A stretch of 32,000 nt of DNA, taken from positions 1-32,000 of the forward strand of contig CAZECW010000157.1 in the NCBI GenBank assembly GCA_964510585.1, in the 5' to 3' direction. The notes under the pieces were generated by a model. The model saw nothing but the letters and a program-made list of their open reading frames with translations. It was not told where the DNA came from and did no database searches. Made by a program: the position numbers and the translations under genes. Below, piece by piece: positions 26,633 to 27,584 of this stretch (position 1 is the first letter of the stretch; each line of letters begins with the position of its first letter). This DNA is from an uncultured archaeon. Its GTDB lineage: Archaea > Asgardarchaeota > Jordiarchaeia > Jordiarchaeales > Jordiarchaeaceae.

Positions 26633-26638
26633 AAAAAA
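26633..26638 (-). terminator. Oligo-T (T6) terminator of the tRNA gene
   Basis: TTTTTT on the minus strand, 10 nt after discriminator C73. Confidence 0.6.
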
Positions 26639-26648
26639 GGTGATTGAG

Positions 26649-26846
26649 GGCCCAAGCCGGGATATTCATGAGACCAGCCAAAGGCTAATCCTCAAATTGA
26701 AATCCCGAACCTAGCCAAACTGGCTAAGGAACCCGGGTCAAGGGATGTCTATCACCCTGGAGACACATCCAACTTCGGTCCACAGTCCCCGAGGATAAAC
26801 CAGTGAGCCCAGCGTGTAGCCACGCTGCGACTACCCCACTTGGGCC
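26649..26846 (-). tRNA. tRNA-His: tRNA-His(GUG) with four introns. Exons 26846-26831, 26802-26780, 26746-26732, 26701-26696, 26662-26649.
   Basis: Spliced 74-mer: G GCCCAAG UG GGGU AGUGGUUUA UCCU C GGGGA CUGUGGA UCCCU UGAC CCGGG UUCAAUU CCCGG CUUGGGC C. Perfect 7-bp acceptor plus G-1:C73, perfect T stem, GUG anticodon. CCA is not encoded. Each junction sits in a BHB-type motif. Confidence 0.92.
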
Positions 26847-26880: not shown

Positions 26881-26895
26881 ATATAAAATTTTTTC
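26881..26895 (-). promoter_or_regulatory. BRE/TATA promoter of the tRNA gene
   Basis: GAAAAAATTTTATAT on the minus strand. It predicts a start near 26858 and a ~12-nt leader before G-1. Confidence 0.65.
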
Positions 26896-27005: not shown

Positions 27006-27584
27006 TTAGGGTTTGTGCCAGGTGAACATGTAGTATTTTGGTTCCCCTGTAGGGGATACTGTTGCTACCACGAATTTTTTGCGGACGCTGGTTGCGAGAC
27101 GCCCCGCCCTTACTGTTTCTATGGGGCTGAGTTGTGTTCCTTTGGGGACGACTGATACTATGAGTGGGGCGTGGTCTATGCCGGGTCCGTGTTCGTAGAC
27201 GGAGAAGTCTGCTCCGAATTTGAGTCCGGGTCTGACTACGTATCCTTTTTCTCTGAGGTCTTTGTAGACTGCATATTTGGTTTTGAAGTCTATGTAGGTT
27301 TGTTCTGCTTTTTCCAATAGTTCTTCGGGAGTTATGGTGTGGTTGTCTTGGGCATCGGTGAGTGTAATTTTTTCTTTTTGGAGTAAGTATAGGGCTTCTA
27401 GTAAGGAGAGTTCGAGGGGGCGTGTGAATTGGGGTGATTTTGGTTTTCTTATTCCTAGGGGTTGTCCGTAGAAGCCTTCGGCGTAGAGTTGGGAGCCTTC
27501 CTCAGGATTCCATACTATTACTCTATTTCCAGAAATTAGTTCCGCTTTTTTTTTGGTTGGTGCTGTTTTTTCGGTTGCCTCCAC
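27006..27584 (-). CDS. endA: tRNA-intron splicing endonuclease, catalytic alpha subunit with crenarchaea-specific-loop-like insertion
   Basis: LSLLEALYL, VYKDLREKGY, GLKFGADFSVY, catalytic Y130/H138/K169. Loop GFYGQPLGIRKPKSPQFTRPL. Confidence 0.95.
   Translation of the reverse strand: MEATEKTAPTKKKAELISGNRVIVWNPEEGSQLYAEGFYGQPLGIRKPKSPQFTRPLELSLLEALYLLQKEKITLTDAQDNHTITPEELLEKAEQTYIDFKTKYAVYKDLREKGYVVRPGLKFGADFSVYEHGPGIDHAPLIVSVVPKGTQLSPIETVRAGRLATSVRKKFVVATVSPTGEPKYYMFTWHKP

Follow-up and report, generated by a model that had tools for sequence, protein, structure and literature searches.

A probably functional tRNA-His(GUG) gene interrupted by four introns in a Freyarchaeia-type Asgard archaeon

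The locus, its spliced product and its splice motifs

The window, that is, the whole 32,000-nt stretch of DNA that was analysed, lies on contig C157 of genome G000, a metagenome-assembled draft of 3.78 Mb in 217 contigs with ~40% G+C, ~96% completeness and an estimated contamination of 4.8%. DNA of the window is matched in public hot-spring metagenome runs. The reverse strand of the window carries a tRNA-His locus of 198 nt (26649-26846) in which five exons, whose lengths were read directly, alternate with four introns that add up to 124 of the 198 nt (Table 1). When the five exons are joined, the resulting 74 nt are called as tRNA-His(gtg) by ARAGORN. Hand numbering of the spliced product identified G-1, a 7-bp acceptor stem, U8, A14, G18G19, U33, the GUG anticodon and G37, followed in the 3' part by a 4-nt variable loop, G53-U54-U55-C56, A58, C61 and the discriminator C73. 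The features expected of a tRNA-His are therefore all present, with GUG as the anticodon, G-1 opposite C73, a canonical cloverleaf and the conserved tertiary nucleotides. The CCA end is not encoded in the gene. By the same hand numbering, the inserts fall at positions 15/16, 37/38, 53/54 and 59/60.

Table 1. Features of the tRNA-His locus and the neighbouring endA gene. Coordinates refer to the window; an arrow marks the cut within a bulge.
Feature	Coordinates	Strand	Length (nt)	Description	Central helix	Bulges (5', 3')
endA	27006..27584	-		Catalytic alpha-type subunit; Pfam PF02778 + PF01974		
TATA-like box TTTTATAT	26881..26888	-		Preceded by an A-rich stretch; 3' end 35 nt upstream of G-1		
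Exon 1	26831..26846	-	16	G-1, acceptor 5' strand 1-7, U8, G9, D-stem 10-13, A14, G15		
Intron 1	26803..26830	-	28	At 15/16; 7-bp intron hairpin; relaxed motif	GGGU/GCUC	AG↓U, AC↓U
Exon 2	26780..26802	-	23	U16 to G37: D-loop 3' part, D-stem 3' strand, anticodon-stem 5' strand, GUG		
Intron 2	26747..26779	-	33	At the canonical 37/38 site	CUGU/AUAG	GG↓A, AC↓A
Exon 3	26732..26746	-	15	A38 to G53: anticodon-stem 3' strand, 4-nt variable loop, T-stem 5' strand		
Intron 3	26702..26731	-	30	At 53/54; 8-bp intron hairpin; relaxed flanks	CCCG/CGGG (uses C48-G51)	GG↓U, AU↓U
Exon 4	26696..26701	-	6	Micro-exon UUCAAU = U54-U59, T-loop		
Intron 4	26663..26695	-	33	At 59/60; long intron helix	UUCA/UGAA	AU↓U, UA↓U
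Exon 5	26649..26662	-	14	U60, T-stem 3' strand, acceptor 3' strand, discriminator C73		
3' trailer CUCAAUCACC, then T6	26633..26648	-		T6 = 26633-26638, 10 nt downstream; oligo-T terminator		

An earlier note on this DNA, made from the sequence alone, had proposed that excision of four segments leaves a 74-nt tRNA-His(GUG) with G-1 and C73, and the ARAGORN call on the joined exons agrees with that proposal. The four intron positions and the intronic share of the locus that it gave were reproduced from the sequence, and its four central helices and their bulges proved exact on re-reading. The note had also assigned the gene a TATA box and a T6 terminator of its own. Both elements are read in the sequence and are conserved in the orthologues described below; TTTTATAT is listed here as the putative promoter of the tRNA-His gene.

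Splice motifs were scored by a helix test in which the four exon nucleotides ending two bases before the 5' junction were compared with the four intron nucleotides at the same offset from the 3' junction. The BHB register, two 3-nt bulges each cut after the second base, was deduced from the canonical 37/38 case. All four inserts display a fully paired (4/4) central helix flanked by two 3-nt bulges in this register, a condition found at 2.2% of random sites in the genome. When both boundaries of an intron were shifted equally by up to 8 nt, so that intron length was kept, introns 1-3 had a 4/4 helix solely in the register given here, and one additional shift, -5/-5, also gave 4/4 pairing for intron 4. 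With boundary sliding allowed, we estimate that four such helices would arise together by chance with a probability on the order of 1e-5.

The motifs differ in their flanking structure. The interior of each of the four introns folds as a hairpin. For intron 2 the outer helix is the anticodon stem, and the helix on the intron side is weak in G000 and strong in two related species (G001 and G004). For intron 4 the T-stem serves as the outer helix only after intron 3 has been removed. Introns 1 and 3 are without an exon-exon outer helix and represent relaxed forms; additionally, the 5' cut site of intron 3 lies in a larger loop with no clean 3-nt bulge. Judged by sequence, introns 2 and 4 appear to approach the strict hBHBh' form. 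RNAfold of the full precursor gave central-helix probabilities of 0.0, 0.0, 0.50 and 0.69 for introns 1, 2, 3 and 4, respectively. We judge the values for introns 1 and 2 to be uninformative for a motif recognised by protein; nearest-neighbour models treat protein-stabilised bulges poorly.

No copies of any of the four introns were found elsewhere in G000 and thus they are not members of a mobile family. A search by eye for a C/D-box-like guide within the introns revealed none. Introns 3 (26702-26731) and 4 (26663-26695) share a hairpin core, TTAGCC(AG)TTTGGCT(A)GGT, with 16 of 19 aligned positions in common (shuffle p ~0.001), a likeness that is weaker by eye in G005. This core is a weak hint of either duplication within the gene or convergence.

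Conservation, uniqueness and alternative readings of the locus

The locus was compared across the genus, with G000 as the reference and five other species (G001-G005), all close kin. An orthologue with four introns at the same positions was identified in all five, with 77-95% identity over the BLAST-aligned stretches; G002 aligned in the 3' half only. The spliced orthologues are called as tRNA-His by ARAGORN in six of six species. Every central helix is fully paired (24/24 helices, 96/96 pairs), including that of intron 1, which is 4/4 in all six species with substitutions that preserve pairing. The alignment of orthologous loci suggested in the earlier note has thereby been carried out, and the four introns are retained with all helices paired. 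Substitutions in the central helices all keep the pair (G:U to G:C, G:C to G:U, U:A to U:G and U:G to C:G). Among these six close-kin genomes such changes are one-sided only, with no double compensatory changes in the central helices; two double compensatory changes are present in the acceptor stem of G002.

Compared with G000, four species retain 97-100% identity in the exons and G002 81%, and intron identity ranges from 57 to 91%. Exon 1 is identical in five of the six species, G002 being the exception. The 6-nt exon UUCAAU is likewise identical in five of six and reads UUCAAC (U59C) in G002, while the introns on either side of it diverge. The TTATA core of the promoter is kept in six of six orthologues, and the trailer CTCAAT with its T-run is also conserved among them. 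The same CTCAAT trailer (window positions 26641-26648, directly after C73) follows the tRNA-His gene of Atabeyarchaeia-2, a member of a different class; it may represent a processing signal or chance.

Compact, intron-less tRNA-His genes are present in other Asgard families (G015, G060 and G103). Full-length comparison of the spliced sequence gave 80% identity with the tRNA-His genes of G015 and G060, and its alignment with the G103 gene was also colinear. A MAFFT alignment of the unspliced locus with these compact genes, made blind to the motifs, placed insertions in the D-loop, at 37/38 and in the T-loop, and fused both T-loop introns into one gap. The tRNA-His of G036, from another Asgard family, contains a single 25-nt intron at 59/60 with the helix UUCG/CGAA, and that of Atabeyarchaeia-2 contains one intron in the D-arm. 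In the sister family (f2, Jordiarchaeaceae-like), no tRNA-His was found by mature-sequence BLAST, three patterns or a covariance model; the covariance-model matches in that family were to tRNA-Gln, one being called as tRNA-Leu by ARAGORN, and one that is unassigned. An Atabeyarchaeia-1 gene annotated as 'His GTG, possible pseudo' (G021:C1:366154-366350, L054, 197 nt) was considered as an orthologue and rejected, as it apparently has A73 and is without G-1:C73. The published isotype call of that gene may be wrong, judging from these positions.

A second tRNA-His in G000 was sought by four types of search, namely ARAGORN with introns allowed, BLAST with the mature sequence, an nhmmer His profile and a His covariance model built from the compact Asgard tRNA-His genes. 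None of the four found another in this ~96% complete draft. The next matches of the nhmmer profile in G000 were a Glu-like tRNA and then a Gln tRNA. The covariance model gives the known Atabeyarchaeia-2 His gene 42.8 bits but detects no tRNA-His in the closed genome G005. HisRS is encoded in G000. The locus is most likely the only detectable tRNA-His of this 217-contig draft, with a second copy on missing DNA being conceivable.

The unspliced locus itself is poorly visible to standard tools. ARAGORN made no call on it, the Rfam tRNA model made none at the gathering score, and 401 nt around the locus gave no match to Rfam when E values as high as 10 were allowed. Even the His-specific covariance model with filters off reached a best score of only 7.3 bits. 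The prediction that default scanners would miss the gene is thus supported, and is further in line with the published tRNAscan-SE/R2DT table of G005, which is without tRNA-His. These failures explain why the gene has been overlooked and are not evidence against it. In the whole of G000, only ~7-10 tRNAs are visible to Rfam or ARAGORN, indicating that heavy interruption of tRNA genes is the rule in this genome.

These observations bear on three alternative readings of the locus. In the first, it would be a decaying tRNA-His pseudogene that has accumulated insertions, with the working copy on unassembled DNA or itself unrecognisable. A draft of 217 contigs leaves room for such a copy, and in related genomes tRNAscan-SE attached a 'possible pseudo' flag to some genes with several introns. 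However, decay is difficult to reconcile with exons that stay 97-100% identical in four of five sister species while the introns drift, with the retention of 24 of 24 splice helices, or with the conserved promoter and terminator. Furthermore, the orthologue is present in the complete genome G005, where the covariance model revealed no additional His gene, and no additional one was found in G000 either. We therefore consider a pseudogene very improbable.

The second alternative concerns the number of introns. Introns 3 and 4 together with the 6-nt exon could form one T-loop intron of ~66-69 nt, in which case TTC, the first letters of intron 3, and AATA, the last letters of intron 4, would restore the T-loop. 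The merged MAFFT gap is compatible with such a parse, since intron 3 begins with TTC as does the exon. Yet the resulting T-loop has 8 nt and the boundaries have no paired central helix (GGGT vs CTCA), and on these grounds the single-intron parse was rejected. With two separate introns, in contrast, each intron has a perfect 4-bp helix in six of six species and UUCAAU is conserved between them, and the tRNA-His of G036 has its lone intron at exactly 59/60 with the same type of helix. We consider a single T-loop intron very improbable as well, slightly more so than a pseudogene.

The third alternative is an artefact of assembly or binning. In one other run (X2), which may be the source sample, a single 2,275-nt contig is identical across the locus, and in a second (X3) three overlapping contigs display zero differences. 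A ~93%-identical relative in runs X13 and X17 keeps the same intron architecture; these runs are labelled metatranscriptomic, and their multi-kb contigs are DNA-like, with no joints. A chimeric contig or collapsed repeats might be suspected in a metagenome-assembled genome with the contamination estimated here, but the identical contigs in these two hot-spring runs, one of them possibly the source, together with the relative, the lack of joints or loose ends inside the gene in any matching contig and the orthologues in five other assemblies, one of them closed, indicate that the locus is not misassembled and leave the artefact a negligible chance. The misassembly that the earlier note had named as a danger to its proposal was therefore not encountered in the contigs of other runs.

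Together the results lead us to conclude, with a probability of roughly 0.88, that the locus is a functional tRNA-His(GUG) gene with four BHB introns, and the sole detectable one, of a Freyarchaeia-type Asgard archaeon.

Splicing machinery and the predicted order of excision

The tRNA-His gene is preceded on its strand, at a distance of 159 bp, by endA, a gene for the splicing endonuclease. The best solved match of the encoded protein is chain B of Aeropyrum pernix EndA. The catalytic His is kept, and the loop FYGQPLGIRKPKSP aligns with the crenarchaeal loop YYGQPLDVEKPRG, a type of loop characteristic of enzymes with broad specificity. A second EndA paralogue is encoded on contig C126 by a 198-aa ORF; it contains both Pfam domains and has Ser in place of the catalytic His, which suggests that it is a structural subunit. 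The two paralogues would fit an (alpha-beta)2 enzyme, with the heterotetramer and its specificity predicted from sequence. PMC5829648 describes (alpha-beta)2 and epsilon2 endonucleases as the types that cleave non-canonical introns. The ligase RtcB is encoded on contig C58. G000 thus encodes both RtcB and an endonuclease of a type that, by its predicted specificity, is suited to non-canonical sites.

The adjacency of endA and tRNA-His is found in every same-genus assembly that joins both genes (four of the five relatives, with a contig break in G004) and is absent from the sister family. This adjacency is probably plain synteny and we read no function into it.

The RtcB gene (G000 C58:3702-5036, + strand) has one in-frame TGA, located inside an insert of ~10 aa between the PD and AHxGYGxPIGG motifs. 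Deletion of 30 nt at C58:3762-3791 (L013:1561-1590), a candidate intron, restores '...SVTLPDAHQGYGFPIGG...'. At the boundaries of this segment, CCCG and CGGG pair 4/4 and the bulges read AC↓A and AA↓G. The mRNA of the ligase responsible for sealing such splices may itself contain a BHB-type mini-intron.

For the tRNA-His gene we propose the following pathway. Transcription would run from its own TATA promoter to the oligo-T terminator and produce a precursor of ~220 nt. The two-subunit alpha-beta endonuclease would cut after the second nucleotide of each 3-nt bulge, and RtcB would ligate the exons and probably circularise the introns. RNase P, a 3' nuclease and the CCA-adding enzyme would then produce the finished 74-nt body with its encoded G-1 and C73, which would be the substrate for aminoacylation. 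Introns 1 and 3, whose motifs are relaxed, would need an enzyme of broad specificity.

The motifs of introns 3 and 4 overlap. U54 is the third nucleotide of the 3' bulge of intron 3 and also takes part in the first pair of the intron 4 helix. Residues C49-G51 pair either with the 3' end of intron 3 or within the T-stem that completes the motif of intron 4. Because U54 and C49-G51 are shared, the two motifs cannot be canonical simultaneously. Cutting of both introns ahead of any sealing would set the hexanucleotide free. If intron 3 left first, a textbook hBHBh' motif would form for intron 4. Given this overlap and an intervening exon of just 6 nt, we predict with moderate confidence that cutting and sealing are probably sequential, with intron 3 spliced before intron 4. 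It is a more tentative and rather doubtful extension of this model that the micro-exon forces a strict cut-and-seal order, and that the gene belongs to a set of essential tRNAs, comprising His, Glu and perhaps Phe and Cys, that lack annotation even in the curated complete Freyarchaeia genome.

A precedent for such an order may exist. Tocchini-Valentini, Fruscoloni and Tocchini-Valentini reportedly described, in PNAS in 2009, the ordered processing of a multi-intron pre-tRNA in which one excision lets another BHB form. The tRNA-His precursor would resemble that case in that the T-stem, the outer helix of intron 4, stacks only after intron 3 leaves. It differs in that the overlap spans a 6-nt exon that would not be retained unless one splice was sealed before the other intron was cut, and in that the order given here is a prediction.

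Relation to known multi-intron tRNA genes

Interrupted tRNA genes with several introns are an established feature of this lineage. Valentin-Alvarado et al. (2024, Nat Commun, PMC11291895) reported that 92-95% of the tRNA genes are interrupted, more than half of them by several introns and many at non-canonical sites. Their Supplementary Data 4 lists four introns for Freyarchaeia Arg-TCT and Ile2-CAT and, after R2DT curation, for Leu-GAG and for Atabeyarchaeia-2 Trp-CCA. One of the genomes compared above, G005, is the published complete Freyarchaeia genome, a single contig of 3,576,204 bp and a relative within the same genus: its tRNA-Val(GAC), tRNA-Val(CAC) and tRNA-Thr(GGT) lie at the coordinates given in Supplementary Data 4 for 'SRVP_Freyarchaeota_curated_circular', exactly or within 1 nt. 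The phenomenon described here is thus the same one in the same genus, and a count of four introns lies within the tabulated range.

A second survey, by Goswami et al. (bioRxiv 10.64898/2026.10.13.758758, October 2026), is a motif-free census that covers Freyrarchaeaceae, Jordiarchaeaceae and Atabeyarchaeaceae and finds 2.2 intervening sequences per gene, with a maximum of five. The authors report two EndA paralogues in most genomes, D-arm insertions that are often missed and T-arm insertions with strong BHB motifs. The lack of intron copies in G000 agrees with their finding for Asgard archaea. The earlier note had inferred that four introns might exceed the known range. That part is not supported, in view of the four-intron genes already tabulated for the genus and the five introns in the 2026 preprint; the gene model itself, in contrast, is upheld by the sequence, by the five sister species and by the encoded machinery.

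The tRNA-His gene is a new example within the known four-intron class of Freyarchaeia, and it leaves unchanged the picture of extremely interrupted Freyarchaeia/Atabeyarchaeia tRNA genes published in 2024. What it adds is modest. The points that we have not found described are the 6-nt exon, the overlapping T-loop motifs and the tRNA-His itself, for which the published Freyarchaeia table has no entry. The Arg-TCT coordinates in PMC11291895 imply longer exons, of 8-9 nt. The table of that study has 38 Freyarchaeia entries and is without His, Phe, Cys, Glu, Pro-TGG, Ala-GGC, Ser-GCT and Leu-CAG. The tRNA-His orthologue at 1,921,594-1,921,790 of G005 is unlisted, the nearest entries being at 1.888 and 2.242 Mb. 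An essential gene is thereby supplied to the only complete Freyarchaeia genome, whose curated tRNA table has no tRNA-His. Several further essential Freyarchaeia tRNAs are probably still hidden by their introns. Goswami et al. inspected only genes detected by tRNAscan-SE and state that a gene disrupted beyond recognition is invisible to their census. Because genes such as this one would not be seen in that way, published intron counts for the lineage are probably still underestimates.

Similar genes are known from the Thermoproteales (Sugahara et al. 2007, 2008; Marck and Grosjean 2003; PMC4090602), where multi-intron tRNAs are alike in having BHB or relaxed introns at non-canonical positions. 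Several introns per gene likewise occur there, together with an alpha2-beta2 endonuclease (PMC4090602). In contrast to the Thermoproteales introns, which belong to sequence families common to several genes, the four introns here have no genomic copies. The split and permuted tRNAs of Nanoarchaeum, Caldivirga and Cyanidioschyzon (PMC3978253, PMC3728597) rely on the same BHB recognition and ligation chemistry. Unlike in those genes, the exons of tRNA-His are all colinear on one strand within 198 nt and form one putative transcription unit, with no need for trans-splicing or permutation. With its four introns, strict as well as relaxed motifs, a 6-nt exon and overlapping motifs, the gene provides a compact test substrate for the Asgard splicing endonuclease.

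Two further loci in G000 were noted in the course of the analysis. At C140:32250-32600 (- strand) lies a tRNA that is invisible to the scanners, with the acceptor GCTCCGG...CCGGAGC-A-CCA, and that is Glu-like by eye. It has several inserts, one of them at 59/60 with a UUCA/UGAG helix; Glu is among the tRNAs missing from the published table. The second gene, at C175:7100-7400 (- strand), resembles tRNA-Gln(UUG), encodes its CCA and is interrupted in the T-arm region; ARAGORN missed it, and the His model gave it 36.5 bits.
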